A stretch of 64,000 nucleotides of DNA from Candidatus Levyibacteriota bacterium (GCA_963722305.1 CAVRKE010000002.1:586678-650677); one strand, 5' to 3'; shown: positions 5,700 through 63,604, counted from the first letter of the stretch. A program made the numbers and translations. The notes: a model not told the origin generated them from the letters alone.

Positions 5700-5774
5700 C
5701 AGGGTTATTAAAAAGTTCAAGCAGACGCACTAATCATTGACAGGTATAAAATTTAAGGTTATCATTTAAACAAT

Positions 5775-44120: not shown

Positions 44121-44237
44121 CATTTCGGGGTCCTGCCGGAAGTTTCCCTCCCGCCAGTGCTCGTTCAGGGTGAAACAAGCTTCAGTGAACTGCGCGCTGT
44201 CAGGAGCCTTTCCACTTCCGTCACCCCTCACAGTATG

Positions 44238-45248: not shown

Positions 45249-45298
45249 TTTTCGCCGGCTGCAACAATCTCGCCGTATCATAGTAATATTCAACAAAC

Positions 45299-46894: not shown

Positions 46895-47127
46895 TTGGGA
46901 ATGGTCTTTTAAGCAAAAGCCAGATTAATAAGTTGATTTATCTTTCATTACTTTGTCTAGGATTTTGTTGCCGGGTCAATGTTAGTCAAAAAGATTATTA
47001 ATAATAAAGGTTCCACTATAGATGTATTCTAAGCTAAGGTATTTTTATTTGTCAACAAACCTGTAATTTAAATTACATACAGCAGAGTAGAAATTGCGTA
47101 TTCTAAGCTCCTAAGTCATCTGAATTT

Positions 47128-47643
47128 ATGGAAGAAGAAAATAAAACGCAAGTTTCTGGAAAACGTCCATTTTGGCAGTGGGCTTTTTTAGGTGTTGTGG
47201 TGGTAATAGTAGTTTATGGGCTGGTTTATTATTTTGTTTTAGCAAAGCAACCAAGTAGTCAGAGTATGACTTCTGCAGCTTCATCTATGAAGCCAACCAT
47301 GGCGCCAAAACCAACAGCAGGGACAGCGATGCAGAAATTTTCCGACTCAAGTGACTACCAGTATAGCTACAAGATTTTCCCCGGAGCTTTAGCGAGCGAA
47401 TCAAAGCAGGCAATGGCCGGTTTTGCGATGACTACAAAAGTCATGCCGGATGGTTCAACTCAAGTGACCCTAACCGCCCAGAACCCACTTTATAAAACTC
47501 AGCAGTATATGGTAAAACCGGGAGACACACTCTACTTCATCGAAAGAAATCTTAAGGACGACGATCCGGAAAAAGATACAGATAAGATGATGCTCGATGA
47601 TACCGCCATTTTAGTCGACCCCCAAGGGAATATTATTCAATAA
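47128..47643 (+). CDS. hypothetical membrane-anchored protein
   Basis: ORF with one N-terminal TM helix. Confidence 0.4.
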   Translation: MEEENKTQVSGKRPFWQWAFLGVVVVIVVYGLVYYFVLAKQPSSQSMTSAASSMKPTMAPKPTAGTAMQKFSDSSDYQYSYKIFPGALASESKQAMAGFAMTTKVMPDGSTQVTLTAQNPLYKTQQYMVKPGDTLYFIERNLKDDDPEKDTDKMMLDDTAILVDPQGNIIQ

Positions 47644-47654
47644 CAATTAAATAT

Positions 47655-48032
47655 ATGGTTGAAGCAAAAAGACGACGAAAATCGCAGTTTGAAGTTCTTC
47701 TGGTGGAAAGTCGTGTATTCGGCGTAGATATTGCTCGATTGGCGGTGGATAAATTAAGAACTCCTACTGAAATGCAGGAGTTTTTAGACGGATTTGCAGC
47801 TTCTCTTAATCCATTCCACGATCCGCAAAGAAACGCGGATGCTCTTGAACAGGCCAAAAGCAGACTTATGGCTCAGACGAATGTTGCACGATTTTATGAT
47901 GATTATTTAAGATGGACAAAGTTTTTAACAGTAGGTACTCTTTCCGCAAGACCGGAAACTCCTCTTCTACAGTCGGTTGCTGGTCCAAGACAAAGTAATT
48001 TAGGCAATTCATCCCCAAGGCGTGCTCCATAA
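47655..48032 (+). CDS. hypothetical protein
   Basis: ORF of 125 aa. Confidence 0.35.
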   Translation: MVEAKRRRKSQFEVLLVESRVFGVDIARLAVDKLRTPTEMQEFLDGFAASLNPFHDPQRNADALEQAKSRLMAQTNVARFYDDYLRWTKFLTVGTLSARPETPLLQSVAGPRQSNLGNSSPRRAP

Positions 48033-48141
48033 AACTTCGATAATGACTTGAGGCAGGAGAATACCGCTTATATTTGACATCTTCAATTCTTAGTGAAATA
48101 CTCAAACTAGAGGTTAGAGCTTAAATAAAGCTTAAAAGGGG

Positions 48142-48387
48142 GTGAGAAAAATGCAGCAATGTGAAAGTTGCGGAATGCCACTTCAATTAAACACAACATC
48201 AAAAGTTGACGACCGTTATTGTATTTATTGCCAAGATCAGGAGACGGGGGAATTAAAATCAAGGGACGCGGTCAGGGAAGGAAGTATCAGGGCGACGATG
48301 GGCTCAATGGGAAAAACCAGAGAAGAGGCGGAAAAGATGGCAGACGAAATGATGCCAAAACTGCCGCGCTGGCAAGCCCAGCCATAA
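48142..48387 (+). CDS. zinc-ribbon protein
   Basis: CESCG...CIYCQ four-cysteine ribbon. RBS GGGGGTGAG upstream. Confidence 0.45.
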   Translation: MRKMQQCESCGMPLQLNTTSKVDDRYCIYCQDQETGELKSRDAVREGSIRATMGSMGKTREEAEKMADEMMPKLPRWQAQP

Positions 48388-48406
48388 AGTCTGTTATACT
48401 ATTTTA

Positions 48407-49615
48407 GTGACGGAAAAAGTTCCCCAAATCATGATAGCGCAAATAAAACTGTTTCTGCAGAAAAACCGAAGCGTCTTAGCAATTTTTGGAATCTTCACTG
48501 TTGCCTGTATTTTGTTAATTGCCATTTTGAGCTACAAAACTACTACTCAGGGTATGCAGAATTTCAAACTTTCCGCTCAGTTGGAAGCCACCGCTGCCAA
48601 GCTTAACAACTTGCAAAACCAAAACCAATACAAAATTAACCAAAGCTTAAAAGCCAGCATTAACAATATCCAGACTACTTATAAATCTTCGCTTGGTTTG
48701 TACCAAAGAATTCTGGATTTACAGGCCCAAAAACAAGACACAAGCGATTTGGATAAACAGTTTGCGCAAAGCTTAAGCTATCTGTCAGATCTAAATTATG
48801 CTTCTGCTTCGGCCAGTTTAAATTTACTGGCAACGGAGATTAAAAATAAAGAGGATGCGCTGGCTGCGGCTCAGGTTCAAGCTCAAGTTGCCCAAAATGT
48901 TACTCAAAGCAACACGCCACCGGGCAGCGGATTTTCGGTTCAGTCTGTCACAACCGACAATGGGAAGTTTACAGTATATATAGTAGCGGCGGATTTAAAC
49001 TCCACGCGAGTCATTGTTGACACGGCTTCCAACAGCGATTGCAGTAATAATTGTCCGGTGCTGCCTTTGTCCGATTATGTGGGAAGAAATGGCGCGTTTG
49101 CCGGCATTAACGGTTCGTTTTTCTGTCCGGCCGAATATCCAAGTTGCGCGGGGAAGACCGGTTCGTTTGACCTTTTGGTGATGAATAAAAATAAAGTCTA
49201 TTTTAATTCCGCCAATAATGTTTACTCAACCAACCCGGCGGTGATTTTTTACGGCAACAGCGCGCGTTTTGTCGGTCAAGCGCTTGAGTGGGGAAGGGAC
49301 ACCGGTGTTGACGCGGTTTTGTCCAACTATCCGTTGTTGGTATCAGGTGGAAATATTGTCTACGGCGGAGGTGGCGACCCCAAGTTTTCGCAAAACGGAG
49401 CCAGAGGCTTTATTGCCAATAAAGGTAGCACGGTTTACATCGGTGATGTTTTAAACGCCACCATGACGGATAGTGCCAAAGTACTCAAGGCTTTGGGTAT
49501 GGATAATGCAATGAACTTGGACGAAGGCGGCTCAACGGCTTTATGGGCCAACGGTAATTATCAGTTAGGTCCGGGCCGCAATATCCCCAACGCCATTCTA
49601 TTCACCCACAAATAA
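48407..49615 (+). CDS. membrane-anchored protein with C-terminal phosphodiester glycosidase (NAGPA-like) domain
   Basis: N-terminal TM, a coiled-coil, and a C-terminal domain with PLLVSGG, ARGFIANKGSTVYIG and AMNLDEGGSTALW blocks. Confidence 0.6.
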   Translation: MTEKVPQIMIAQIKLFLQKNRSVLAIFGIFTVACILLIAILSYKTTTQGMQNFKLSAQLEATAAKLNNLQNQNQYKINQSLKASINNIQTTYKSSLGLYQRILDLQAQKQDTSDLDKQFAQSLSYLSDLNYASASASLNLLATEIKNKEDALAAAQVQAQVAQNVTQSNTPPGSGFSVQSVTTDNGKFTVYIVAADLNSTRVIVDTASNSDCSNNCPVLPLSDYVGRNGAFAGINGSFFCPAEYPSCAGKTGSFDLLVMNKNKVYFNSANNVYSTNPAVIFYGNSARFVGQALEWGRDTGVDAVLSNYPLLVSGGNIVYGGGGDPKFSQNGARGFIANKGSTVYIGDVLNATMTDSAKVLKALGMDNAMNLDEGGSTALWANGNYQLGPGRNIPNAILFTHK

Positions 49616-49659
49616 TTTTTCAGTTTCACTTAAGTTTTAAAGTGGTATAATTCTTACCA

Positions 49660-50394
49660 ATGAATGTTAAAAACAAAATTGCCATTGTGACCGGAGCATC
49701 TTCGGGAATTGGATTGGCAACAGCTAAACTTCTTTCTCACAAAGGCGCTACAGTGGTGCTGGCGGCGCGCTCACTTGATAAGCTCAAAAAACTTTCTCAG
49801 GAGCTCCCTGGGGCATCACTGGTCGTCCAAACCGACATACAAGACGAAAAGCAAATCAAAAATCTCATTCAGGTAACCCTCAACAAATTTGGGCGAATAG
49901 ACGTTCTAATTAATAATGCCGGTCGGGGGTACGATGCATATGTTGAAGAAATCGAAACCGATAAATGGAAAGAACTCATCAGCCTTAATTTAATTGGACC
50001 GCTTTTGGCAATTCAACAAGTAGTCCCACAGATGAAAAAACTGGGTGAAGGTGCAATCGTCAATATTTCCTCGGGAACCGCTTTAATGGCCTTGCCCGGC
50101 ATGAGTGCTTATTCTTCACTGAAACGCGCTTTAGTCGGGCTGTCCTTAACCGCCAACGAAGAACTGAAAAACGACAAGATTACCGTCAGCGTAATTTATC
50201 CGTATATTACTGCCACTGATTTTGAAAAAAATACCATCAAAACCAAAAGAGTTCAGTCTCAAAACGAAGACGAGGGCGATTGGGATGCAAAAGCCGACCC
50301 GCCGGAATTAATTGCCAAGAAAGTGTTAGAAGCGATTGAAACCGGAAAAGCGGAACTTTACGCCCACGACTGGATGGCCCGCCCGCCACGCTAG
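49660..50394 (+). CDS. SDR family oxidoreductase
   Basis: TGASSGIG cofactor motif and the YxxxK catalytic pair. Confidence 0.8.
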   Translation: MNVKNKIAIVTGASSGIGLATAKLLSHKGATVVLAARSLDKLKKLSQELPGASLVVQTDIQDEKQIKNLIQVTLNKFGRIDVLINNAGRGYDAYVEEIETDKWKELISLNLIGPLLAIQQVVPQMKKLGEGAIVNISSGTALMALPGMSAYSSLKRALVGLSLTANEELKNDKITVSVIYPYITATDFEKNTIKTKRVQSQNEDEGDWDAKADPPELIAKKVLEAIETGKAELYAHDWMARPPR

Positions 50395-50439
50395 CCAAAG
50401 CCGGTGAAGGCATTGCGGGCAGGGAAAACGAGGTTAATT

Positions 50440-50919
50440 ATGGACCAAAATAAAATCATCAGAAAAGAACTTCTAAGCCTTCTTGGCGGCGGTAACGCGC
50501 ATATGAGTTTGGAAGAAGCGGTCGAGAATTTCCCCGAGGATAAAATTAACGACCTCTTTCCTAACGGAGAATATACTCCCTGGCACCTGTTAGAACATAT
50601 CCGTCTAAGCCAAAACGACATTTTGGATTTTATCGTCAATGCAAATTATCGGGAAAAAGACTGGCCAAAAGACTACTGGCCGGCCCGAAGCAAAAAAGCC
50701 ACCATCAAAGACTGGCAGAAAACCATCAGTCAAATTCAAAAAGATAATCAAGCGTTGCAACAACTTGTCAACAATTCCAAAACCGATTTGTACGCTAAAA
50801 TCCCCTGGGGAGAAGGGCAGACCATTTTTCGGGAAATTCTGACGGTTTCCGACCACAACGCTTACCACATCGGTGAGTTTGCCATCATGCGCCAAGCAAT
50901 GGGTACCTGGCAAAGGTAA
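50440..50919 (+). CDS. DinB-like four-helix-bundle protein
   Basis: ORF 50404, with a likely start at 50440. H..H metal-site pattern (WHLLEH ... NAYHIGE). Confidence 0.45.
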   Translation: MDQNKIIRKELLSLLGGGNAHMSLEEAVENFPEDKINDLFPNGEYTPWHLLEHIRLSQNDILDFIVNANYREKDWPKDYWPARSKKATIKDWQKTISQIQKDNQALQQLVNNSKTDLYAKIPWGEGQTIFREILTVSDHNAYHIGEFAIMRQAMGTWQR

Positions 50920-50921
50920 CA

Positions 50922-51431
50922 ATGACAAAAATCACTGTTCTTCAAGGAGATATCAGCAAACAATCTGTCGATGTGATAGTCAATGCCGCCAATAGAATGC
51001 TGCTTGGCGGCGGAGGAGTAGACGGGGCAATTCATCAAGCCGCCGGCCCGAAACTTCTGGAAGAGTGTAAAGCTTTGGGCGTCTGTCAGACCGGCGAAGC
51101 CAAAATAACCCGCGGCTACAATTTGCCGGCCAAATTTGTCATTCATACTGTCGGACCGGTTTATGGGAGAGAATTTGGTAACGAATCAAAACTGCTGAGG
51201 AATTGCTACAAGAATTCACTCTTGCTGGCTAAACAACATCATCTTAAAACCATTGCTTTTCCGGCAATTTCCACCGGTGTTTACGGATTTCCAAAAGTTG
51301 AGGCGGTTACGATCGTTCACTCCGTACTGCAGGAATTCACAAAAGACAATTATTTTAGCGAAATCCGCCTGGTTGTTCATTCGGAAGAGGACAAAAAGCT
51401 ATATGACAAGTATTTTTCGGCTGTAGTATAA
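50922..51431 (+). CDS. macro domain protein (O-acetyl-ADP-ribose deacetylase-like)
   Basis: VNAANRMLLGGGGVDGAIHQAAG signature. Confidence 0.8.
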   Translation: MTKITVLQGDISKQSVDVIVNAANRMLLGGGGVDGAIHQAAGPKLLEECKALGVCQTGEAKITRGYNLPAKFVIHTVGPVYGREFGNESKLLRNCYKNSLLLAKQHHLKTIAFPAISTGVYGFPKVEAVTIVHSVLQEFTKDNYFSEIRLVVHSEEDKKLYDKYFSAVV

Positions 51432-51440
51432 TCTTTCTAA

Positions 51441-52004
51441 ATGAAAAATGTTTTAATTTTGCATGGAACTCAGGCTAATTCAAAATCAAATTGGCTGCCT
51501 TGGCTAAAAGAGGAACTGGCTAAAAAGGGAATGAAAGTTTGGTTACCGGATTTGCCGAATCCAAACCTTCCAAGCCTCAAAAACCATGTCAAATTCATTT
51601 TGTCCAACAAAGATTGGAAGTTCAATAAGGATTCAATTATTGTCGGACATTCTTCCGGCGCGATTGCGATTCTGGCAATTTTAAGTGAACTTCCGGAAAA
51701 TGTTGTTGTGGATAAATGTATTCTGGTTAGTTATTTTACCAAAGATTCTCCGGGGGGGGCATGGAAACCAAACAGAATTTTCTTTGATTATAAGTTTGAC
51801 TTCGCCAAAATAAAAAAACACGCTAAAAAGTTTATCATCATTCACTCCGATAACGATCCATATGGTCCGCTTAAAGACGTGAAAGTTTTGGCCCAAAAAT
51901 TAGATGCGCAACTTATCATCAAAAAAGGCCAGGGCCATTTTAACCTCGAAAAAGGGGAGGAGTACCGCCAATTCCCATTCTTATCAGGGTTGATAGAGAA
52001 ATAA
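51441..52004 (+). CDS. RBBP9/YdeN-like serine hydrolase
   Basis: About 187 aa alpha/beta fold with a GHSSG nucleophile and the HSDNDPYGP region. Confidence 0.6.
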   Translation: MKNVLILHGTQANSKSNWLPWLKEELAKKGMKVWLPDLPNPNLPSLKNHVKFILSNKDWKFNKDSIIVGHSSGAIAILAILSELPENVVVDKCILVSYFTKDSPGGAWKPNRIFFDYKFDFAKIKKHAKKFIIIHSDNDPYGPLKDVKVLAQKLDAQLIIKKGQGHFNLEKGEEYRQFPFLSGLIEK

Positions 52005-52060
52005 TTCCGCCTCAATTTGACTTTTTAATTAAGTAGTGCCAGTCTTAAGAAAGAAGGGGG

Positions 52061-52270
52061 GTGAGAAACTTGCTGTCCTCAAAAATGTTCTACAAAATAG
52101 CGGGAGTGGTGTTTGCAATTGTTGGCGTCTTGCACCTTTTAAGAGTAATTTTAGGTTGGAATTTGGTTTATGCCGGTTGGGATTTTCCGGCCTGGTTAAG
52201 TCTGGTGGCAGCGGTTGTGCTTTTCTATCTTTCTTTCAACGCGTTTAAACTAGCGGGGTTATTAAAATAG
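52061..52270 (+). CDS. small membrane protein
   Basis: Two hydrophobic helices. Competes with overlapping frame 52036..52248. Confidence 0.3.
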   Translation: MRNLLSSKMFYKIAGVVFAIVGVLHLLRVILGWNLVYAGWDFPAWLSLVAAVVLFYLSFNAFKLAGLLK

Positions 52271-52359
52271 AAAAGAACAAAAGCAGAAATAATTCCTAGC
52301 AATGCCAGTATAAGAGCTTATAGTGGAATAATTTCCCTCGTTTTGCTATAATCCCCACC

Positions 52360-52920
52360 ATGGCAAAAGCAGAAGAGGGCCCAAGCAGGGTTCAAGACAG
52401 CGAAATAGAACAAAACTACACTTATCATCCGTTTGAAGAGGTGAAAAGTGCGTTGGCAAGTTTAGGGTATGGTCCGAGCAAAATGCTGGTTGATGCTGTT
52501 TATGTCCGAAAAGACGGAATGCAGGCGGTGGGAGTGCTGACGGTAACCGAAGGGCATTGCCGCGACCACTTCGGCTTATTCAGGGGAGTAGACCAAGGGG
52601 AAGCTGCAGGTCAAACCTTAATTTTGCTGCATTGTTTTACAGACGGAATTCCGGAAGGGCAAAGTCCACTTCTTAGACATATCGCTATTGATACGGAAAA
52701 TCCCGCACCCGAAGGAGTAGTTTTAAATATGTTTGTCGATAAAACCGGGAACCGGGGAAATATTTTTTCGGGGAGAGCAAACGTTGAATCCGGAGCCGGA
52801 GTAATTTCAAGAGTAGAGATGTCGGGAAGAATTTTACCAACGGAATTGGCTAGAAAACTTATCGAATGGCGAAGAAAGAGAGAGCTTGAACATCCTGCCA
52901 GATTTCAACTTAAACCCTAA
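52360..52920 (+). CDS. hypothetical protein (GC-rich island)
   Basis: ORF of 186 aa. Confidence 0.4.
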   Translation: MAKAEEGPSRVQDSEIEQNYTYHPFEEVKSALASLGYGPSKMLVDAVYVRKDGMQAVGVLTVTEGHCRDHFGLFRGVDQGEAAGQTLILLHCFTDGIPEGQSPLLRHIAIDTENPAPEGVVLNMFVDKTGNRGNIFSGRANVESGAGVISRVEMSGRILPTELARKLIEWRRKRELEHPARFQLKP

Positions 52921-52981
52921 ATAACTTCCACCGCTCCCACCGCTGATTGATTTTTTAAAAATAAATCGCTAGAATGCCGTT

Positions 52982-53344
52982 ATGGCATTTCCTCATATAG
53001 AAGCAACAGGATATATAGGAACAACGGGGGGAATATTTCCGGCTAAAGACCTTCCATTATTCCGAACTATCGCGGATATATTTACAGAAAGAGGTGGGCG
53101 GGTTGGGATTACAGTAGGAAAAAGAGAAGATCTATTAGGACGTCCTTTGGGGGCAGATGAAGTAAGATTAATTATTAATTCGTCAAAACCTCTTGAGAGA
53201 TTTTGGAGAGTTGCTGATCCTGCCAAGCAACTTAGAACGGATCTTACTAAACAGGGTATTACGGAAGAAGAGGTAGCGCTAAGAGTCGATGCCCACATAA
53301 GAGAAGCAATTGACCGATTATTTTCTATGCCACAGTCAAGTTAG
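52982..53344 (+). CDS. hypothetical protein (GC-rich island)
   Basis: ORF of 120 aa, followed by the GC-rich 3' motif. Confidence 0.4.
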   Translation: MAFPHIEATGYIGTTGGIFPAKDLPLFRTIADIFTERGGRVGITVGKREDLLGRPLGADEVRLIINSSKPLERFWRVADPAKQLRTDLTKQGITEEEVALRVDAHIREAIDRLFSMPQSS

Positions 53345-53454
53345 TAATCTTTCTTCGCCGCCCCTGCCGAGCGGGGAATAATTCTCCCTCAAAATTGGTA
53401 ACTGTAAGTTAAATTACTGAATGCTCTTTTAATAAAGCTGATAATCACTTCATT

Positions 53455-53838
53455 ATGTTAACAAATTCTGCGGTTATGCCAACCATTCCGGTCACGGATA
53501 TAAGTAGAGCCATTGATTTTTACGTCAATAAGCTGGGACTAAAACAAAACCCGATGAGCATGGAAAAGGACGGGGCGTTGTTTGATGCCGGCAAAGGAAC
53601 AATGTTATATCTTTACCAAAGGGCTGCGTCTAAAGCCGATCATACTCTGGCTAGTTTTGCGGTAGAGAATTTGGAACAAACAATGGGTGAGCTTTTGGAA
53701 ACGGGCGTTACTTTTGAGCACTATGACATGCCCGGACTGAAAACCGACGAAAAAGGCGTTGCAACGAATGGAAATATCAAATCAGCCTGGTTTAAAGACC
53801 CCGACGGTAACATTTTGGGACTTGTCGAAGTAAAGTAG
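53455..53838 (+). CDS. VOC/glyoxalase family protein
   Basis: About 127 aa, with glyoxalase-like beta-alpha-beta-beta-beta pattern residues. Confidence 0.65.
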   Translation: MLTNSAVMPTIPVTDISRAIDFYVNKLGLKQNPMSMEKDGALFDAGKGTMLYLYQRAASKADHTLASFAVENLEQTMGELLETGVTFEHYDMPGLKTDEKGVATNGNIKSAWFKDPDGNILGLVEVK

Positions 53839-53860
53839 ATAGTAAATAATCTCGCCCCGA

Positions 53861-54589
53861 TTGACTTTTAGTTATCACAGTCATATAATTCCTCGCATTA
53901 TGACAGGAGAAATACCAGCAGCAATCAATAGAGCAAACTCCGGAGCAGTAGCCGAAATTCAATCCGCGGCAGCTACTGCTGATACATCCCCGCTTTCACC
54001 AATAAAGCTAATTATTAAGCAAGACGTCAGAAGAATTGGGACAATGCTGGGCAATATCAGTTTAGGTTCTTTGGCAGCAAAGGCGGGAATAGATGCTTAT
54101 TGGGGTATTGATAACGTTGCCGTCAAACCGTATTTGGTAAGAAAAGAAGTTTTCCAAAAAGGCCAGTCGGATTTGGAAATCATTTTGGAATTATTGGGCC
54201 AAGAGGGATATGCCGCTAGAATAGAACAGGCAGCGGAGAGACAGACCGCAGGAAAACCGCTAACGGTTAGTCAAGTGGTAGAAAAAACTCCATTGACAAG
54301 AGCAGATCGGTTGGGCGAAAAAACAGTAAGAGATATTGGCAAAGATTATGCAGAAATGCTGACTACTTGTTGGGGCACAAACAGAGAATTACCCATGTCT
54401 GACAAAATTGGCCCTCAGGCCCCGGATACGGCCTTACTTTTAGCCAGAAGAGAAGCAAGCTTTTTAGTTTCTAATGCCCTCAGAGAAGTTTTAAGTATGT
54501 TAGGGCAAGCAAATTACGCGTTTAGAATTAGTCAAGCGGTATATTGCAAAGTTTACGGTAATCCCGCTGCAGCCACTGTATCGCAATAA
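53861..54589 (+). CDS. hypothetical protein (GC-rich island)
   Basis: ORF of 242 aa, followed by the GC-rich 3' motif. Confidence 0.4.
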   Translation: MTFSYHSHIIPRIMTGEIPAAINRANSGAVAEIQSAAATADTSPLSPIKLIIKQDVRRIGTMLGNISLGSLAAKAGIDAYWGIDNVAVKPYLVRKEVFQKGQSDLEIILELLGQEGYAARIEQAAERQTAGKPLTVSQVVEKTPLTRADRLGEKTVRDIGKDYAEMLTTCWGTNRELPMSDKIGPQAPDTALLLARREASFLVSNALREVLSMLGQANYAFRISQAVYCKVYGNPAAATVSQ

Positions 54590-54631
54590 CGCCGCCCCCG
54601 CCGGGGTTTATGCTATTATGTGTAGTTAATT

Positions 54632-55069
54632 ATGGATAGTGCAGTAAATGAAGGGATAAAGCCCCCGCCTTCAGCAGAAATTATGCTTAAAGGGGAATAC
54701 TCCAGGTATAAAGCTTTTATGGGAATGGCACAAGAAGCAGAAAATCAAAGAGATGTTCCAAGTCAGGACCAACATGTGCTTGAAGCAGGAGAAATTATTG
54801 CCGGGCTAAGCGATATGATTATGCAGGATGGTGTAAATAGAGCTGGGCTTACTCAAGCTCACTTGGACTTAATAAAAGTATTTTCCGAAAAGGCTAGATT
54901 TTATCTTGACCATAATCAAAATAGGGCAGGTATTTTAGGGATATCATTACTTTTTAATCCATTGGGTTCAAGGCTCAGCGGTAAAACTGAAATGGAGAAG
55001 CTACTCGAAGAAGCGTATCCAATTGAACCTGCAAATAAAACAAATCCGAGTGAACCTCAAGGTTCATAA
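54632..55069 (+). CDS. hypothetical protein (GC-rich island)
   Basis: ORF of 145 aa, followed by the GC-rich 3' motif. Confidence 0.4.
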   Translation: MDSAVNEGIKPPPSAEIMLKGEYSRYKAFMGMAQEAENQRDVPSQDQHVLEAGEIIAGLSDMIMQDGVNRAGLTQAHLDLIKVFSEKARFYLDHNQNRAGILGISLLFNPLGSRLSGKTEMEKLLEEAYPIEPANKTNPSEPQGS

Positions 55070-55153
55070 TTCCGCCGCCCCCGCCGGAGTTGTAATGAGT
55101 AGGCTGAGATACATAGGTACCACTTTTGAACTACAATAGCGGTTCAAAAGGAG

Positions 55154-56242
55154 GTGAAACCTATGAAATCAAAAGCACATAAGCCGGCATTGTATCATCC
55201 ATGGGGATACACAACCTGGAGAGCAATTGAAAAGGGAAAAGATAACTACTGGGATTATCTTCGTATTCAGGCAAAGTTGAATAAACTATCTCCAAAAGGA
55301 CAACTTCATTTGGAATGGGTAATCTTTTACTACACGTTTGGAGAAAGAAACGTTAGTAAAACCACTAAGCACTTTGGTATTGCAAGAAAGACTCTAAGAG
55401 TCTGGTTAAAACGGTTTGACGGTAAGTTTATCAAAAGTCTTGAAGAGAAACCGAAAAGACCAAAACAAGTTAGGACATGGATGGTATCTCAAAAAGAAGA
55501 GGAGCAAATTATTGCGCTTCGAAAAGAAAACATGGAGCTTGGTAAAAGAAAATTAAAGATTCTCTACGCTAGAAAATACCAGGAGAATATCTCAACTTGG
55601 AAGATTGAACGGGTAGTAAGAAAGCACAAATTATTCCAAGAGAAAAAGAACGGATACGTTAAAAGAAGACCTAAACAGCCTCGAATTCGTATCCATAAGG
55701 TAAAAGAACTATTACAGGAATATCCTACGGGAGTAGTCTGGCATACGGACAGTATTATTATCTGGTGGTATGGCACAAGAAAAGTTATCTTCACAGCCTT
55801 AGAGAACAAAACTAAGCTTGGCTTTGCCAGAGTATACAAAACAAACTCTTCGGCAAATGCTGCAGACTTTCTGAAACGACTAAGCTATTTAAGCAATAAT
55901 CAGCTTGCCATTATTCACTCTGACAATGGATCTGAGTTTGATAAGGATTTTGCAAGAGTATGTGAAATACTTTCCATCCGACAAGTATTCTCCCGCCCCC
56001 ATACGCCCAAGGATAATCCTTGTCTTGAGAAGTTTAATCATACAGTACAAAGAGAGTGGCTTAGTTTTTCTGTCATAGGGCTTGATGAAATTGATGAAGC
56101 AAATATTGATTTAACAGAATGGTTAGTCAAATACAACAGTATTCGTCCGCATCAAGCCCTTGACTACAAAACTCCTTTGGACTATGCTTATGAGCAATCT
56201 CCTCAACTGGTACCAATGACCCCAGCCCAATCATGTAATTGA
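55154..56242 (+). CDS. IS481/IS3-like transposase (HTH + rve integrase core)
   Basis: DDE integrase core (HTDS, SDNGSEF, PHTPKDNPCLEKFNHT). RBS AAAGGAGGTG upstream. Confidence 0.8.
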   Translation: MKPMKSKAHKPALYHPWGYTTWRAIEKGKDNYWDYLRIQAKLNKLSPKGQLHLEWVIFYYTFGERNVSKTTKHFGIARKTLRVWLKRFDGKFIKSLEEKPKRPKQVRTWMVSQKEEEQIIALRKENMELGKRKLKILYARKYQENISTWKIERVVRKHKLFQEKKNGYVKRRPKQPRIRIHKVKELLQEYPTGVVWHTDSIIIWWYGTRKVIFTALENKTKLGFARVYKTNSSANAADFLKRLSYLSNNQLAIIHSDNGSEFDKDFARVCEILSIRQVFSRPHTPKDNPCLEKFNHTVQREWLSFSVIGLDEIDEANIDLTEWLVKYNSIRPHQALDYKTPLDYAYEQSPQLVPMTPAQSCN

Positions 56243-56249
56243 CCGAATA

Positions 56250-56438
56250 GTGTATAATAAAAACATGAAATTGGAAGATTTAATCAAATTACAAAACAAA
56301 TGGGTTGCATTTTCCAAAGATAGAAAAAAAGTGGTCGAAAAAGCGAGCACTTTGGAAAATCTACTAAAAAAAATTGGTGATCAAAGAGATCTGGTTGTTT
56401 CTTTTATGCATCCCGCCGACAAATTTCTTTCACCTTAA
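56250..56438 (+). CDS. small protein upstream of aspartic protease
   Basis: ORF of 62 aa. Stop 13 nt before the protease ATG. Confidence 0.35.
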   Translation: MYNKNMKLEDLIKLQNKWVAFSKDRKKVVEKASTLENLLKKIGDQRDLVVSFMHPADKFLSP

Positions 56439-56451
56439 ATTCAATTGCCCA

Positions 56452-56880
56452 ATGAAAAATATCACCTTTTACTACGTTCCTGAAGTTGGAAAAGATTTAA
56501 CCACAGGAAAAGTCTTTGAAATTTTAAGGCCTAAAATTCCAGTTCGTTTATCCGTTAATCATAACGTTTCAAAAATATTAGTTGATTGCCTTTTTGATAC
56601 AGGAGCTGATAGAAATTTGTTCCCAGCTGCTTGGGGAAGAAGCTTGGGATTGAAAATAGAGAAAGGGAAATTGGTTAAAACAATGGGAATCGGCGGAAAA
56701 GAAATCAAGGCTTATGCCCACCAGGTTGTTTTATATATCCAAGGGAATAAAATTATCACGGAAGCCGATTTTACCGACGAAAATAATACGCCATTACTTG
56801 GTAGAGGAGGTTTTATGAACCATTTTGACGATATAGTTATAAACGAGAAGAAAAAATTCATCAAATTATCTTTTGCCTAA
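56452..56880 (+). CDS. retropepsin-like (clan AA) aspartic protease
   Basis: Catalytic motif LFDTGADRNL. ORF 56374, with a likely start at the ATG at 56452. Confidence 0.55.
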   Translation: MKNITFYYVPEVGKDLTTGKVFEILRPKIPVRLSVNHNVSKILVDCLFDTGADRNLFPAAWGRSLGLKIEKGKLVKTMGIGGKEIKAYAHQVVLYIQGNKIITEADFTDENNTPLLGRGGFMNHFDDIVINEKKKFIKLSFA

Positions 56881-56923
56881 GCTTCACGACCGCCGCCCCC
56901 GCCGGGCGGGAAATAATCTAGCC

Positions 56924-57049
56924 CCGATTTTGTTTTTTGGGTTCAAAGATTTTTAAACATTTTTCACAGAAATAAAATCCTTTACCATTATCATACTTAG
57001 TTTTACATTCTTCACAGAGTTTTTCCCTAATTGGATCTTTCATTTGTCC
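56924..57049 (-). CDS. small zinc-ribbon protein (41 aa)
   Basis: Minus-strand ORF MKDPIREKLCEECKTKYDNGKGFYFCEKCLKIF... with RBS AAAGGAGGAC 5 nt upstream. Has CxxC...CxxC. Confidence 0.35.
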
Positions 57050-57168
57050 TCCTTTCAGAGAATTTATTCTCATATATTAATTATACGCTTTAGGGGTATT
57101 TTTTCATTTTTAGCTTCGTTGACTTTATTTTTAAAAGAGAGTATAAGAAAATAAGAAAGTATAAAAAT

Positions 57169-57633
57169 ATGATATGGATTGTAATAGCGATATTAATAGC
57201 TGGTTTTTTCATAGCGAGAGCAATTCAGAATAATTCTCCTAAAACAAAGGGAAACAATATTAACAATCAAATAAATGAGATTGAAAAACAAGCATATAAT
57301 TACTTTGCTCAAGCGATTGATTTATATAAACAAAGTTTAGCCGAAGCTAAAACACGAAAAGACAAAACTTCTGTTAATTCTGACGAAGGAAAAATAAAAA
57401 GTATTGAAGCTGATGAAATTAAATATATTACTCTAAAAGAAAAATTAAAACATGCTTCTATGGAAGAAAGATTGGCTCTTGTTCAGGATTGGCGTGATTT
57501 AATGGAAATTGTATTAAATAGAGCATTTGCATTTCAGCCACCAGTAGTAGAGATAGATGAAGAAAGCTTGAAAAGAGGTGGAATTAGAGCAAAAGAAATA
57601 ATTAAGAGATTTGATAAAAGATTTAAAGCATGA
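57169..57633 (+). CDS. hypothetical membrane-anchored protein
   Basis: N-terminal TM helix. Terminator-like hairpin CCCGAC...GTCGGGATTTT at 57693-57738. Confidence 0.4.
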   Translation: MIWIVIAILIAGFFIARAIQNNSPKTKGNNINNQINEIEKQAYNYFAQAIDLYKQSLAEAKTRKDKTSVNSDEGKIKSIEADEIKYITLKEKLKHASMEERLALVQDWRDLMEIVLNRAFAFQPPVVEIDEESLKRGGIRAKEIIKRFDKRFKA

Positions 57634-58164
57634 ACCTAACCTAAAAGTGGTATAATATTAGTATAGGTTTTTTAAAACCCGACAGAGTGCAGACAAAATA
57701 GCTGCAAGACGTCGGGATTTTGCGTAATTAAGGGGTATTGATAACCCTATCTTAATTGACATTTATGGTCAGTTTTATAAAGCATATAAGAAGGCTGTTG
57801 TCTTCACATATATAAGATAACTATTATTAAAAATATATAAATTACTTGACAAAATTGGCCTAAAATATATATGTAGGCACGAAAATAATACAAAGTAGGG
57901 TATTTGGGGGTAAAATTAATATATGAAGCTAAAATGGTCTAAAATAAACAAATTATTAATTAAGCTTTTGAGTAAAAAGAATATAATTTTTATTATTCTA
58001 TTGGTTTATTTTTGCATCTCGCATAGTATTGTCGCATTGATTCTTTTATTTTTAACAGGCTACAAGGCAAAATTTAATATTGGTGGTTTTTTCAAAGCTG
58101 ATAATAAATAACCACCCTTGACCCGTTCGGCTCCGCTCAGGGTTGCGCTCCGATAAATCGGAGC

Positions 58165-58193
58165 TTGACACTGTTTTGAACCTATGGTAATAT
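58165..58193 (+). promoter_or_regulatory. rRNA/tRNA operon promoter
   Basis: TTGACA (58165-58170), a 17-nt spacer, TAATAT (58188-58193), upstream of tRNA-Ala and 23S. Confidence 0.55.
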
Positions 58194-58363
58194 CATTTGT
58201 ACGTGAATGAATCCCGATTAGGTTCGGGAGGAATTTATTTTATGATGACACTAAGAAAATTAACTTTTTCAACCGCGTAGGCGGTTTTTGTGGCTTCTTA
58301 TAACTAAATTCCCTCGTTCACTAGTACTTTTAATAATTTAGCTTACGGGATCCCGAAACTTTG

Positions 58364-58436
58364 GGGCCGTTAGTTCACCCGGTAGAACACTTCATTTGCA
58401 ATGAAGAGGTAGGCGGTTCGAGTCCGCCACGGTCCA
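58364..58436 (+). tRNA. tRNA-Ala (anticodon UGC)
   Basis: Acceptor GGGCCGT/ACGGTCC with the G3-U70 identity pair. D-arm GTTC-ACCCGGTA-GAAC. Anticodon loop TTTGCAA. T-arm GGCGG-TTCGAGT-CCGCC. Confidence 0.85.
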
Positions 58437-58596
58437 CCGGATAAACAACGATTCGGGTTCAAATTACTCATTATCTAGAAAGTAGCGCTTGCCACACGAC
58501 GTGGCCGCTACTTTCTAGATACGAAATGAGTTGGCCAATGAAGTACATCGGAGATGACTTCATGGCCATGAAGCGAGTTCTAACTCTGCTTCATTG

Positions 58597-58608: not shown

Positions 58609-58914
58609 GTGAGGAGAAGGCCCATTGAATTTTTCCGATTTATTTCGGAAGAGTTTAATGGGAAGATTTTTAATCTACTCATAATGCCGATAATGGATGC
58701 CTAGGAGGCTTTGACCGAGGAAGGACGCATACGGCGGCGATACTCGTTGGGGAGGTGCCATAAACCTTTGATCCAGCGGTTTCCGAATGGGGTAACCCAC
58801 CAGCTTGTCTGGTGGCCAAAAATGAACTTGGACTCGTAAGAGTTCATATAACTTTTGGCCGGGTACGGCGTGAACTGAAACATCTAAGTAACGCCAGGAA
58901 TATAAATCATCCGA

Positions 58915-58946
<32 letters not shown>

Positions 58947-60743
58947 CAGTCTAAACTTGTGCGCAGCACAAGAAATCACAAATCACAATGACCAAATCTC
59001 AATTAATTTTGGGATTTGGATTTTGGAGCTTGGGGTTTCTCGCGTTGCGCGCGAGGGTTGCAGGGCAGACGATATTCGATTAAATTCAGGTAGCAGAAGG
59101 ATCCGGAATGGTCCTCCACAGAGAGTGAAAGACTCGTACGCGAAACTTGAATTTACGATAGTCTGTTCCTAAGTACCATGGGGTACGGTGAAACCCTGTG
59201 GGAATCTGGGGCGGCCACGTTCCAAGACTAAATATCAAAGTCTACCGATAGTGAACTAGTACCGCGAGGGAAAGGTGAAAAGCACCCCGGGAGGGGAATG
59301 AAATAGAACTGAAATTGTCGGCTAACAAGCAGGCAGAGTCGAGCGCAAGCGAGATGATGCCGTGCCTATTGAAGAATGAACCGGTGAGTTATTGATTGCA
59401 GTATAGCTTAACCAAGCTTGTCTTGGGGAGGCGTAGTGAAAGCGTGCCCTAACCGGGCGATTAATTGCAGTCATTAGACCCGAAACTGGGTGAGCTAACC
59501 TTGAGCAGGGTGAATGTTGACGAAAGTTAGCAGGAGGCCCGAACTCGTAGCAGCAGCAATTGCTTGAGATGACTTGAGGTTAGGGGCAATATGCCAAACG
59601 AACCCAGAGATAGCTGGTTCTCCCCGAAATATATTTTGGTATAGCGGTTATTTGTAATACGCTGAGGTAGAGCACTGGATGATCATTTGCGTCGCAAGAC
59701 GTAGGGATTAACCAAACTCCGAATGCAGCCGTATGTTTAATAACTAGTCAGACTCGTCGGGCTAAGCCGATGGGTCAAAAGGGAAACAGCCCAGACTCCC
59801 ATCTAAGGCCTCTAAATAAAGGCTAAGTTTTGAACGAAGTCAAATTTCATAGACAACCAGGAAGTTGGCTTAGAAGCAGCCATCTTTTAAAGAAAGCGTA
59901 ACAGCTCACTGGAGGATGATATTTGGCGCGAAAAATTTATCGAGGATTAAGCCTTTTGCCGAAGTTGGAGTTCCTATTTTATTAATTTAAGGTAGGGAGG
60001 TAGGGGAGCGTTCTATTTGCAGTGAAGCCGAGGTGTAAACCGAGGTGGAGCGGATAGAAGTGAGAATGCCGGTATGAGTAGCGAAATGCATGTGAGAATC
60101 GTGCACGCCGAATATCCAAGGTTTCCTCCGCAATGTAAGTCAGCGGAGGGTTAGTCGGTCCTAAGGGTGTGCCTCGTTAAAGGGGCGTAGCCCGATGGAT
60201 AAGTCGTTGAAATTCGACTACAGAATGTGAACCGTTCAAGGGAAGGACGAAAGTGGAAGAGCTGAGTCCCGTTCGCGGGATTTAAGCAGTAAGATAGTGA
60301 TAACTGGTAAATCCGTTATCGTGTTTAATCAAGCTGCAAATAAAAGGGATTAGTAATAATTCCGATTTAGTAGCTTTCAGTTTCCGAGAAAATTTTCATT
60401 GAGTCCCAAGAGCAATCGAAGGACAAATTCATATTTTTCCGTACCGCAAACCGACACAGGTGGATTGGTCGAGAAGACTAAGGCGATCGAGTGACAGATG
60501 TTCAAGGAACTCGGCAAAAAAGCTAGGCGTAACCTATGGGAGATGCCTTGTCCTGATTAGTTTCAGGATTGCAACAAAAGTTTATTTACCGACTGTTTAT
60601 CTAAAACACAGGTCCCTGCAAAGCCGAAAGGCAAAGTATAGGGGCTGACGCCTGCCCAGTGCTGGTAAGTCAAATATCGTGAATAAAACGTCGCAAGATG
60701 TCAGTTTGTGATATAAGCTCCAGTAAACGGCAGCAGTAACTAT

Positions 60744-61452
60744 AAGAAATTGTAGTTATAAAATTTAGCTATATGCTGGAAAATCTGTACCGCAACTGTT
60801 TAAAACAGACGGTTGAAGTATCTGGCGTTACTATGTTATATTTAATGTAGTGAAAAAACGTCCAGCGCAGACAATCAGCAGGAAAGACCTTGATCGGAAG
60901 AATTTAGGCTATTTTATAGCGGGGTTTGTAGAAGGAGAAGGGAGTTTTAATGTATCACTTCGTAAAAAAAGTGATTATAAGGTTAAATGGCAAATTGTTT
61001 TAAGTTTTAATGTTTCCCAAAAAGATCCATCAGTTCTTTTTATAATAAAAAAAGAACTAGGATGTGGAATAATTAAAACAAGAAAAGATGGTTTGCATTC
61101 TCTAGATATTACAAACTCTCAAGAAATAGTCAAAAAAGTTATTCCATATTTCACAAGATATCCTTTACTATCTAATAGTAAAATTAATAACTTTAATATA
61201 TTCTGTAAAATCTCAAAGCTTGTTGAAAGCGGAGAGCATAGAGATATTAAGGGATTAAAAAGAATTTTACTTTTAAGAGAAAAATTAAATGAAGGTAAAG
61301 GAAGAACAAGGAAATATGGATATAATGATATATTTCCGATTGAGGAATCCTCAGAGACTATACGCTAAACCCGCTTATAAGCGGTGATGATATAGTCCGA
61401 CCTCATGGACGACCATGAGACTCTGTATTCAATCAGAGCAAGTAACAATGTG
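60744..61452 (+). mobile_element. group I intron 1 in 23S (E. coli position ~1917 region) with LAGLIDADG ORF
   Basis: The 5' exon ends ...GTAACTAT. The R element TCAGAGACTATACG overlaps the ORF end. The S element GATGATATAGTCCGACC is present. The intron ends ...CAATGTG before the 14-nt exon AACTGTTCTATGGT. Confidence 0.65.
60850..61368 (+). CDS. LAGLIDADG homing endonuclease (intron-encoded)
   Basis: Single-motif LAGLIDADG: LGYFIAGFVEGEGSF. Confidence 0.8.
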   Translation: MKKRPAQTISRKDLDRKNLGYFIAGFVEGEGSFNVSLRKKSDYKVKWQIVLSFNVSQKDPSVLFIIKKELGCGIIKTRKDGLHSLDITNSQEIVKKVIPYFTRYPLLSNSKINNFNIFCKISKLVESGEHRDIKGLKRILLLREKLNEGKGRTRKYGYNDIFPIEESSETIR

Positions 61453-61466
61453 AACTGTTCTATGGT

Positions 61467-61712
61467 AACACTTCGTTGCTTTAGAAAAAGTGTTTTAGAA
61501 ATCTAACTATATGCTGGAATAACTCAGAATCCAACAGTACCAGAAATGGTAAAAATCTGTTTGGTGGAGTCAATCAGCAGGGAAGATCCCGATCTCTCGG
61601 GAAACCCTCAGAGACTAAACGTTAGAGTCGCCATTCAGGCGATAAGATATAGTCCGACCTCCGATGCGAATCGGAGAATCTAGATTTGCAAGATCTAGGA
61701 TTAACATAATTG
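61467..61712 (+). other. group I intron 2 in 23S (E. coli ~1931 region), ORF-less
   Basis: R element GGGAAACCCTCAGAGACTAAACG and S element ATAAGATATAGTCCGACC. Ends ...AACATAATTG immediately before exon AGCGAAGTTCC. Confidence 0.6.
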
Positions 61713-62183
61713 AGCGAAGTTCCTTGTCGGGCGAGTTCCGACCCGCACGAAAGGCAGAACGAGTAAATAACTGTCTTGAACATCTACTCGGCGAAATTGA
61801 GATGGCCGTGAAGACGCGGCCTAATTGTACATGGACAAAAAGACCCCGGGAGCTTTACTGTAGCTTGGCATTTGAAAGTATATTCTAACTGTTTAGAATA
61901 GGAGGGAGCTTTGGCAATAGTGAAATACCTCTCTTTGGAATATGCAATCATTACCTCTAGCCGCATAAAAATTCGGCAGAGGGACAGTGTCTGGCGGGCA
62001 GTTTAACTGGGGCGATTGACTCCTACAATGCAACGGAGTCGTATAAAGGTTGGCTAACTGCGGATAGAAATCGCAGTGATAGTGCAAACGCATAAGCCAG
62101 CTTGACTGCGAGACCTACAAGTCGAGCAGGTGGGAAACCAGATGTTAGTGATCCTGTATGGCGTAGTGGTACGCCTACAGCTT

Positions 62184-62216
<33 letters not shown>

Positions 62217-62247
62217 GATCGCATCCAAGCGTCCACAGCGACGATGC

Positions 62248-62305
<58 letters not shown>

Positions 62306-62320
62306 CCGGCTGTTCGCCGG

Positions 62321-62355
<35 letters not shown>

Positions 62356-62363
62356 AAGACAGT

Positions 62364-63146: not shown

Positions 63147-63279
63147 TCGGTCTCTATCCTGTACAATCGTTGATATTTGAGAAGATTCGTCCCTAGTACG
63201 AGAGGACTGGGATGAGGGAATCCCTGGTGTGCCGGTTGTTTCCGAATAGGAGCAGCGCCGGGTAGCTAGATTCCCAACC

Positions 63280-63310
<31 letters not shown>

Positions 63311-63604
63311 GGCCTTCAAGATAAGATATCGTGTGCCCGTAAGGGTACTAAAACCCCTTCTAGACTAGGAGGTTGATAGGCGGACAGTGTAAGCGCCGTA
63401 AGGTGTTTAGCTTACCCGTACTAATGGTTTTTAGAGTAGATTGAAAATGATATTTCTCCTCACCTTTAAGGAGCCAAGTTTGACTTGGCGACGCAATCCT
63501 CCTAAGATTGCTCCGTGAGCCGTGTTCGAATAGAACTGAAAAGGCGAACGGTAAAATCGGGAGGATAAAGAGCGCCTTGAACATTAACAATTGAAGATGG
63601 AAAT

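Follow-up and report, generated by a model that had tools for sequence, protein, structure and literature searches.

A conserved 21-bp motif at the joints of a putative integron-like cassette array upstream of the rRNA promoter in Patescibacteria

Introduction

Why should a row of unrelated small genes each end at the same short GC-rich sequence, immediately upstream of the promoter of the ribosomal RNA (rRNA) genes? The question is raised by a 64,000-nt stretch of DNA from a Candidatus Levyibacteriota bacterium (GCA_963722305.1 CAVRKE010000002.1:586678-650677), analysed here in full and hereafter called the window. An array of about six to seven units, separated by copies of a 21-mer (M), of a shorter companion sequence (M*) or of both, spans about 52.0 to 58.1 kb of it. 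The window derives from a low-GC (41%; mean 0.407) genome of the Patescibacteria or candidate phyla radiation (CPR) type, and homologues of its genes in public records bear the names Microgenomates, Patescibacteria and Daviesbacteria. Bacteria of this kind have tiny genomes and are thought to be host-dependent, and their acquisition of accessory genes is poorly understood.

Our comparative analysis shows that this array keeps its architecture in about 24 related loci, whereas the cassettes it contains differ and are shuffled. An earlier interpretation of the region (the sequence-only reading) had offered three explanations for the recurring motif: a terminator, a recombination site of a cassette-like array, or the footprint of a mobile element. 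The second fits best, since in relatives the motif lies at the joints of differing, shuffled units, mostly of a single open reading frame (ORF), at the same chromosomal place. We accordingly give evenly balanced credence to an integron-like cassette array in which M and M* are the junction or recombination sites and the recombinase is encoded elsewhere.

Motif copies in the window

The element M* (CGCCGCCCCCGCCGG) occurs four times in the 64 kb, where 0.01 copies would be expected by chance. All four lie on the plus strand within 3.5 kb, beginning at 53356 (2 mismatches), 54590, 55073 and 56891, and no further copy with up to 2 mismatches was found in the window. They begin 12, 0, 3 and 10 nt past the stop codons of the ORFs at 52982-53344, 53900-54589, 54632-55069 and 56452-56880, respectively, which share no detectable similarity with one another. 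The recurrence of a GC-rich motif after four unrelated ORFs, as described earlier, is thus real. The continuation also reported, AATAATCTNGCCCCGATT, is present at 53845 and 56912, and the copy at 53356 runs on into a diverged version, AATAATTCTCCCTCAAAATT, which scores 12.9 bits with a position weight matrix (PWM) of M. Sequences following the three perfect M* copies diverge directly past ...CCGG, and a single M stands after the last of them.

What did not hold was the framing of the region as a visibly higher-GC island. Windowed GC for 52360-57100 is 0.404 against the window mean of 0.407, at the 43rd percentile of same-size windows; the first half reaches 0.432 (82nd percentile) and the second only 0.366 (10th percentile). 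Codon usage gives the same answer, the GC content at third codon positions (GC3) of several ORFs being below, not above, the reference (0.24-0.35 versus 0.44 ± 0.05). The sequence-only reading had set its island against two observations, unexceptional GC and a motif ubiquitous after genes; the GC is indeed no outlier, whereas the motif is confined to one locus, both in the window and in relatives.

Of the five highest PWM scores in the window, four belong to the M family. M-like matches at 25222 and 28161 lie inside coding regions and were judged chance, and a PWM scan of the remaining 58 kb of the window returned no convincing copy. Searched for in 185,579 species genomes, the composite motif GCCCCNGCCGNGCGGGNAATAAT gave 3 matches, about the chance expectation, in unrelated genomes: a Glassbacteria metagenome-assembled genome (56% GC), an Acidobacteriota metagenome-assembled genome and an uncultured Desulfovibrio. 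A scan of viral contigs for M yielded 7 single matches, the best of which (L112) bore no other resemblance to the array; BLAST of 52000-57150 against phages and plasmids found no match, and 51900-58250 held no Rfam family apart from one chance match.

The 21-mer in related loci

Syntenic loci of relatives were fetched through homologues (73-82% identity) of the neighbouring Ser_hydrolase gene. None of the three loci so recovered encodes a homologue of the island proteins, and the second half of the originally described motif is their most over-represented 11-mer. Scanning metagenome contigs with GCGGGAAATAATCYAGCC gave 100 stretches, of which some two-thirds are single chance matches in unrelated, mostly higher-GC DNA. 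Together with the hydrolase-derived loci and the window, it provided 34 low-GC (0.34-0.45) M-bearing loci, about 24 of them distinct, in which copies were counted at up to 4-5 mismatches. The window belongs to a 679-kb NCBI contig; near-identical assemblies of its locus are available in ENA and Logan (L001, 99%; L002; L003; L122) and agree with it in arrangement.

The full motif, M, is GCGGGAAATAATC(T/C)AGCCCCG, of which window positions 56906-56926 are a perfect copy. This copy and 62 in relatives make 63 distinct copies, one to five per locus, co-oriented within each locus and with none on the opposite strand. In the 60 copies with long enough flanks on both sides, information content is near 2 bits at positions 4-18 and drops to background directly outside the motif on either side. 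The lineage of the window has M* largely to itself; a shorter form, G(C/T)CCC(C/T)GCCGG, is fused to GAAATAAT at six junctions in relatives.

Conservation of M does not depend on what surrounds it. Its core shows 0.32-0.56 mismatches in all four contexts, whether or not a promoter follows and whether or not an ORF precedes, and perfect copies occur also where no co-oriented ORF precedes. M keeps its plus orientation around reverse cassettes (HicAB and ORFs of 304 and 75 aa). Because conservation is equal in all contexts and orientation is kept around reverse cassettes, the function of M appears to be tied to the joint itself, and not to transcription of the gene on either side. At older junctions M has decayed while the adjoining promoter survives; L010 shows this at its 104-aa gene when set beside L007 and L008.

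Array anatomy: cassettes, stops and promoters

Counts of array anatomy were made on 39 inter-M intervals in 19 non-redundant arrays. Intervals have a median length of 548 nt (range 156-1,368), and 29 of the 39 hold exactly one co-oriented ORF. Five were scored as containing a reverse ORF only, one of these being a mis-called interval with the 69-aa membrane-protein gene memb69. One interval truly lacks an ORF; a second so counted (L054 227-1175) holds a 308-aa ORF whose called end runs beyond the next M copy. Recognisable products comprise HicA with a HicB-like partner, a MazE/AbrB antitoxin, Fic, PCMT, XRE and sigma-r4 helix-turn-helix proteins, a FabA-SDR fusion, a cupin and a small kinase, and the majority belong to no family.

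Upstream of 46 of the 63 copies lies a co-oriented ORF of 45 aa or longer. Its stop codon falls inside M in 21 of these 46, mostly as TAA at positions 9-11 or TAG at 14-16, so that unrelated proteins end in ...GGK* or ...EREII*; in another 21 it lies 1-30 nt upstream. On the other side of the motif, a sigma-70-like promoter begins within 38 nt of 31 of the 60 copies, compared with 9% in controls. The -35 element starts 0-1 nt after M in 14 cases and 7-13 nt after it in another 10, with an overall spacing of 0 to 36 nt. Since an ATG stands 4-13 nt past the -10 element in 30 of the 31 promoters, the transcripts are predicted to be leaderless or nearly so. A conserved module of about 65 nt, comprising M, promoter and ATG, precedes unrelated ORFs, among them the 229-aa ORF of the window.

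Two short intervals in relatives may be scars: the ORF-less 156-nt interval between two M copies in L008 (7287-7463), and L050 1670-1733, where a partial M (AATCTAGCCCCG) and some 14 nt similar to the 3'-terminal part of the 146-aa gene are followed by a full M.

Chromosomal place: beside the rRNA promoter

Twenty loci extend into the rRNA genes, and in each of them every M is found upstream of the rRNA promoter, tRNA-Ala and 23S gene and shares their orientation, the last copy being 9 to about 1,250 nt from the promoter. The available housekeeping flanks of these loci contain no convincing copy. Absence from these flanks and from the rest of the window marks the motif as locus-specific rather than as a generic signal.

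The downstream anchor in the window is the rRNA promoter at 58165-58193 (plus strand; TTGACA-17-TAATAT), followed on the same strand by tRNA-Ala (58364-58438), the 23S rRNA gene (from 58668; 58668-63324), which is interrupted by group I introns, and then 5S. No 16S rRNA gene lies upstream of this tRNA-Ala-23S-5S order within window positions 1-58363, and the rRNA genes are therefore unlinked. In relatives the promoter is conserved from its -35 element onwards, and in several of them the sequence GAATAACC(G/A)CCC abuts that element.

Relatives also show how compact the locus can be. L053 (78-1188) has the order thioredoxin reductase, memb69, M, 10 nt, rRNA promoter; 0.3 kb separates the reductase from the promoter, compared with 12.9 kb in the window. 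In L087 only GCCCCCA, the last bases of M, and the same linker stand before the rRNA promoter, a remnant that suggests a break inside M.

Within the rRNA promoter region of the window (58107-58170), AAATAACCACCCTTGACCC combines an M-like sequence with an apparent old -35 element; between it and the present -35 element stands an insert of some 40 nt that contains the hairpin GCTCCGATAAATCGGAGC. A similar insert occurs in L012, and L010 and L046 have the uninterrupted form. The wider zone between thioredoxin reductase and the rRNA promoter (44157-58165) varies among relatives as well, the hydrolase, Gmad2, NAGPA and further genes standing in shuffled order. Possibly, the M-marked array is only the youngest portion of this larger plastic zone.

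Evidence for cassette turnover

Several units recur in relatives beside different neighbours: a 146-aa membrane protein (16 loci), memb69, the 104-aa zinc-ribbon protein, HicAB and an AAA kinase. The HicAB unit of L061 (653-1261) is 93% identical to that of L065 (930-1537), with M on both sides of each and unrelated flanks. Positions 3031-3165 of L046 match 3561-3695 of L091 at 99%, the similarity beginning exactly at M and the upstream sequences being unrelated. Ends of homology blocks between arrays lie within 10 nt of M in 39% of cases, compared with 4.3% for random positions, many of the pairs not being independent. At the level of whole arrays, L061 and L094 have rRNA operons that are 98.7% identical and share no cassette. 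Comparison with relatives, which the sequence-only reading had proposed, thus revealed a conserved architecture filled with differing content.

Mechanism and alternative explanations

How would such units come and go? We infer that M and M* are the sites at which cassettes are inserted, excised and exchanged. The agent judged most likely would be a site-specific recombinase whose gene lies elsewhere in the genome. Homologous recombination of the short-repeat or one-sided kind, with the conserved rRNA operon as its anchor, may operate instead or in addition. The perfect M* copies (54590, 55073 and 56891) may represent one site duplicated by two successive insertions, that of a 145-aa unit and then that of a small-protein/protease unit, with a single M left at the distal end. 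Two such insertions into one M*+M site would yield exactly the observed pattern of three M* and one distal M.

The enzyme itself has a single candidate in the window. An Xer-like tyrosine recombinase gene on the minus strand (6430-7290) matches XerD in phmmer (E 2e-29) and TIGR02225 (XerD) at 174 bits, below cutoff; it scores 64 bits with the integron-integrase model against a cutoff of 265. This gene is a candidate for a trans-acting role, although nothing links it to the array.

Several results weigh against the recombination-site reading. The Xer-like gene is the only tyrosine or serine recombinase detected in the window, and it is housekeeping-like and 45 kb away; a phmmer search with XerD and a resolvase through ORFs of at least 80 aa in the 34 loci found this gene only, and no recombinase lies in or next to the array loci, including 5-12 kb of upstream flank in four of them. 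The alignment of M reveals neither the dyad symmetry usual for core sites of tyrosine and serine recombinases nor an attC-like structure. No circular cassette or precise excision allele was observed, and the strain-level data of L001 and L122 show an array identical to that of the window. That a promoter comes after about half of the copies, in 14 cases at a fixed spacing of 0-1 nt, would fit a promoter role, as would the shortened M-like sequence that abuts the -35 element of some rRNA promoters. The clustering of homology-block ends near M is inflated by many non-independent pairs involving the 146-aa gene and is weakened further because genes end in M and promoters start right after it, so that any gene-sparing rearrangement must break near M. 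Finally, the confinement of M to one place in the genome is deduced from contig-level data and from the 64 kb of source genome scanned. The lack of a recombinase at the array, of a dyad and of circular or excised forms, together with the 64 kb scanned, is why we hold the recombination-site reading no higher than an even balance.

A bolder version of it, advanced tentatively and judged somewhat improbable, is that Patescibacteria possess a new site-specific cassette-capture system: single-gene cassettes bearing leaderless promoters would be inserted and exchanged at the 21-bp non-palindromic site GCGGGAAATAATCYAGCCCCG immediately upstream of the rRNA promoter by a trans-encoded recombinase whose site logic is unrelated to that of IntI/attC, making the system an analogue of the integron with an independent origin in ultra-small bacteria that depend on hosts. 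There is a real chance that the cassette array was invented independently here.

The alternative that survives best, which we nevertheless consider unlikely, is that M is a regulatory module upstream of promoters, for instance a UP-like element or a sequence bound by a monomeric activator or repressor, copied along with a leaderless promoter of high strength. In that case the array would be a set of co-regulated accessory genes shuffled by ordinary recombination, and the "mobile promoter" would possibly derive from the upstream region of the rRNA promoter. The excess of promoters over controls, the two preferred -35 positions (about one helical turn apart), the nearly invariable ATG and the recurrence of the module of about 65 nt before unrelated ORFs all agree with this view. 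So do the M-like sequence abutting several rRNA -35 elements, the full M 10 nt upstream of that promoter in L053, and the sharp edges and cross-species conservation, which are typical of protein-binding sites. The difficulty lies in perfect or near-perfect copies that have no co-oriented promoter or gene after them: window 56906 faces a convergent gene, L065 927, L007 6984 and L091 2575 each stand before a reverse cassette, and L021 1524 is a further example. Core conservation is independent of a downstream promoter, the spacing from M to the -35 element is variable overall, M decays at old fixed junctions where the promoter survives, and no other promoter in the window carries M.

M might instead be a passive homology anchor that needs no dedicated enzyme. 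Exchange would then proceed by natural transformation and RecA-dependent or homology-facilitated illegitimate recombination, with the rRNA operon as a long anchor on one side and M and the similar promoters as a short anchor on the other. We regard this as quite unlikely. It would account well for an array that abuts the most conserved sequence in the genome in every locus reaching it, for the lack of a nearby recombinase, for repeats of 21-65 nt and very high identity at each joint, and for the nearly identical rRNA operons of L061 and L094 beside completely different arrays. It leaves unexplained the near-invariance of the 21-mer across species while flanking intergenic DNA is saturated, the strict single orientation and the three perfect tandem M* copies; moreover, 21 bp is at the lower limit for RecA-dependent exchange.

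Very little weight falls on the proposal that M, M* or both are terminators or insulators that end cassette transcripts and shield the rRNA promoter from read-through. The position of M, overlapping a stop codon or starting within 30 nt after it in 42 of 46 cases, would suit it, T-rich sequence often follows M, the M* of copy F (56891) can form a 6-bp GC hairpin, and copy D (54590) can be read as a CCCC/GGGG mini-hairpin followed by TTTAT. Yet the copies fold no better than shuffled sequences (z-scores around zero, -0.7 to +1.1), a consensus scan found no terminator-like site at any of them, and the hairpin at copy F is followed by GAAATAAT, not by a T-run. The sole helix possible in M is CGGG/CCCG, 4 bp around a 12-nt spacer; it shows no compensatory changes, 22 of the 47 distinct copies have a broken outer pair, and its "loop" is the best-conserved section of the motif, the opposite of what terminators show. 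Copies after reverse cassettes have no co-oriented transcript to end.

Least probable of all is that the copies stem from a transposable element, as its footprints, its termini or its target duplications, be it the IS481-like insertion sequence (IS) lying between the last two M* copies, a miniature inverted-repeat transposable element or a repetitive extragenic palindrome: identical direct repeats of 15-16 bp do flank 55088-56890, but this IS has ends and a target duplication of its own (described below) and is present in no relative's array, the units between M* copies have no inverted repeats at their ends, and the motif is never inverted, not dispersed and limited to one locus.

Comparison with known systems

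Integrons are the closest known system, in particular sedentary chromosomal integrons and the integrase-free form, the clusters of attC sites lacking an integrase (CALINs; PMC4889954, PMC9024848). As in these, the units of the array are short, co-oriented and mostly of a single ORF, with the site at the 3' end of the ORF and often overlapping it; ORFans and toxin-antitoxin genes dominate, some toxin-antitoxin units being reversed; content and order vary between close relatives while architecture and chromosomal place are kept; and, as in CALINs, no integrase adjoins the array.

The differences concern the joint, the enzyme and the anchor. attC sites are imperfect inverted repeats of 57-141 nt (R''-L''...L'-R'), conserved in structure and carrying a GTTRRRY core (PMC4889954, PMC9024848), whereas M is a sharp-edged 21-bp sequence conserved at the level of its bases, without R''/L''-L'/R' organisation and without GTTRRRY. 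The integrase IntI, the attI site and the cassette promoter Pc were not found here. Unlike integron cassettes, those of the array are not promoterless, given the promoters that follow 31 of 60 junctions. The array is anchored at the rRNA promoter, and its hosts are a lineage of Patescibacteria. We therefore class it as integron-like, with a different joint and a different anchor, and outside integrons proper in its lack of attC structure, of IntI and attI and of promoterless cassettes.

Modules bounded by Xer recombination sites offer a second comparison. In pdif modules of Acinetobacter plasmids (PMC6449649, PMC13141974) and in elements integrated at dif, short sites bound accessory modules that include toxin-antitoxin pairs and are shuffled between replicons. 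Their recombinase is the housekeeping Xer encoded elsewhere; here an Xer-like gene lies 45 kb away, with nothing to link it to M. Sites of the dif type span 28 bp, two inverted arms of 11 bp enclosing a 6-bp spacer, and alternate in orientation in plasmids, whereas M has no such dyad and one orientation. Since the array does not lie at the switch in GC skew, it is not at the chromosomal dif.

Two further systems share single traits. The vis or RS sites of Mycoplasma variable-lipoprotein loci have 21-35 bp, are served by an Xer-like recombinase and place a conserved site of about 21 bp beside each gene. These loci contain paralogous surface-protein genes in both orientations, inversion moves one promoter, and the recombinase is encoded next door; the genes of the array, by contrast, are unrelated and co-oriented, each with its promoter. 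Phage morons and propagated mobile promoters are autonomous promoter-ORF units with near-identical promoter modules before unrelated ORFs, but they have no defined junction motif, single chromosomal array or fixed anchor. Literature searches on Patescibacteria for arrays or repeats resembling those of integrons turned up no account of arrays like these.

Significance

Classical integrons are, to our knowledge, essentially proteobacterial. An integrase-free, attC-free array at a fixed place, with a 21-bp joint and leaderless promoters, would be a new route to plasticity of gene content. M offers a handle with which to retrieve arrays from metagenomes, to catalogue the mobile genes of the clade (toxin-antitoxin systems, Fic proteins and ORFans) and to search for the responsible enzyme by co-occurrence. 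Should M prove regulatory instead, it would be part of a compact portable expression module beside the rRNA promoter, which would be new for the CPR as well.

Units of the window array

Profile scores confirmed the gene content given by the sequence-only reading, namely a VOC enzyme, an IS481-like transposase with an rve domain, a pair consisting of a small protein and an aspartic protease, and a 51-aa ORF with two CxxC pairs. Features lie on the plus strand unless stated otherwise. The array opens at the hydrolase gene, whose stop is overlapped by an uncertain, weak M-like copy A (51994-52014; TAGAGAAATAATTCCGCCTCA; 8.2 bits, fifth best of 128,000 positions) followed by TTGACT; the match consists in part of the hydrolase's own conserved C-terminal coding sequence. 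Next comes memb69 (52061-52270), whose homologues in L087, L053, L065/L106, L093, L100, L044 and L027 are 62-91% identical over the aligned part and have M on each side and differing neighbours. Behind it, an uncertain, degenerate M (52282-52303; AGCAGAAATAATTCCTAGCAAT), recognised by eye and below the top PWM list, is syntenic with an M copy of L053.

The following two ORFs are of unknown function. The 186-aa product of 52360-52920 has no match in Pfam, NCBIfam or PDB, and a single-sequence AlphaFold2 model of it was unusable (predicted local distance difference test, pLDDT, 38.5); a homologue (37% identity) lies between two M copies in the array of L054. A FabA/FabZ-like hot-dog fold was considered for this protein and found no support. 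A possible diverged M* (52928-52943; CCACCGCTCCCACCGC; 4 of 16 mismatches) stands 8 nt past the stop at 52920, and it is not significant alone because the window holds 8 other matches with 4 mismatches. The 120-aa ORF (52982-53344; GC3 0.24), likewise without family or PDB match, leads to junction B (53356-53391), where M* (53356-53370) is joined to the diverged M (53371-53391).

The VOC/glyoxalase-family ORF (53455-53838; PF00903, 32.4 bits versus a cutoff of 20.6) is followed by junction C (53839-53889), in which an M diverged at its 5' end (53839-53859; 10.8 bits) precedes a promoter (53861-53889; TTGACT-17-TATAAT) and an ATG at 53900, a start of leaderless type. The same arrangement of M, promoter and ATG precedes unrelated ORFs in L008 (twice), L018 and L050. 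Behind junction C, the 229-aa ORFan (53900-54589) matches only itself among 1.84 billion representative proteins, and its single-sequence AlphaFold2 model was also unusable (pLDDT 36.7). Junction D (54590-54604) is an M* alone, with 0 mismatches and directly past the stop codon. The 145-aa ORFan (54632-55069), which matches only itself among 5.8 billion clusters, is closed by junction E (55073-55087), again an M* alone with 0 mismatches.

Beyond the IS lies a two-gene cassette (56265-56880) for a 57-aa protein (56265-56438) and a retropepsin-like aspartic protease (56452-56880), the latter matching Asp_protease_2 (24.9 bits versus a cutoff of 24.3), TIGR03698 (22 bits, below cutoff) and, weakly, Ddi1 structures in PDB (E ~0.9). 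Junction F (56891-56926) joins M* (56891-56905) to the perfect M (56906-56926; 21/21, 39.4 bits). The convergent 51-aa zinc-ribbon ORF on the minus strand (56918-57073; two CxxC pairs; C1_2, 19.9 bits, below cutoff) has its last three codons (NRG) and its stop inside that M. ORFs of 154 and 62 aa complete the array before the rRNA promoter.

As to the source population, no other junction allele was seen among contigs bearing the VOC gene, the arrangement being identical in them. Logan unitigs of the source run break at the VOC stop and the motif of junction C: L003 ends at 53841 and L002 starts at 53812, the overlap at 53812-53841 being 30 nt (k-1). The other end of L002 lies 30 nt inside the IS (55096-55125). 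The break at 53812-53841 may be a population branch at a cassette junction.

The IS481-like insertion

The IS481-like element (55096-56233, plus strand; 1,138 bp) was delimited by comparison with two independent copies, one in L119 (94% identical, in other flanking sequence) and one in L120 (71%). In both, homology starts at 55096; it ends at 56233 in L120 and at 56227 in L119, whose last bases diverge. The ends are imperfect inverted repeats of about 26 nt (TGAGTAGGCTGAGATACATAGGTACC and TGATTGGGCTGGGGTCATTGGTACC; about 21 of 27 positions match, with one gap), and the 5-bp duplication TGTAA flanks the element at 55091-55095 and 56234-56238. Among NCBIfam models the transposase is best matched by IS481 (NF033577; 163 bits, below the cutoff of 224), with IS3 at 104 bits, and it matches rve, rve_3 and HTH_28 in Pfam. 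Hundreds of homologues are found on IS-sized contigs of 1.2-1.5 kb.

This IS is a later insertion into the promoter region of the next cassette and is unrelated to the motif. Because it sits between copy E and the promoter of the protease pair, its target duplication is not formed by the motif copies, nor does it carry the protease pair as cargo. A 1.8-kb transposon running from E to F with M* as target duplication was considered and rejected, as inverted-repeat tests were not significant and the ends of the IS lie elsewhere.

Additional features of the window

The 23S gene holds several related group I intron-like insertions, some with ORFs of homing-endonuclease type. Insertion repeats lie at 60745-60886, 61483-61669, 62439-62559, 61349-61412 and 63023-63087, and insertion ORFs at 60850-61368 and 62517-63020. 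Rfam places Intron_gpI at 61457-61676, and a gene of the aligned L001 contig encodes a LAGLIDADG domain. L001 has about 240 nt where the window has 61093-61641 (549 nt), which suggests intron presence or absence between strains.

Near the other end of the window, an adenosylcobalamin (AdoCbl-II) riboswitch lies at 54-131, and the ORF at 81-902 contains tandem coding repeats rich in Thr and Pro (399-598) with a periodicity of 12-24 nt. A tRNA-Ile gene (anticodon TAT) is located at 5628-5700, and runs of CAAATCC-type heptamer repeats occur about 2.8 kb apart, at 32604-32634 and 35444-35508.

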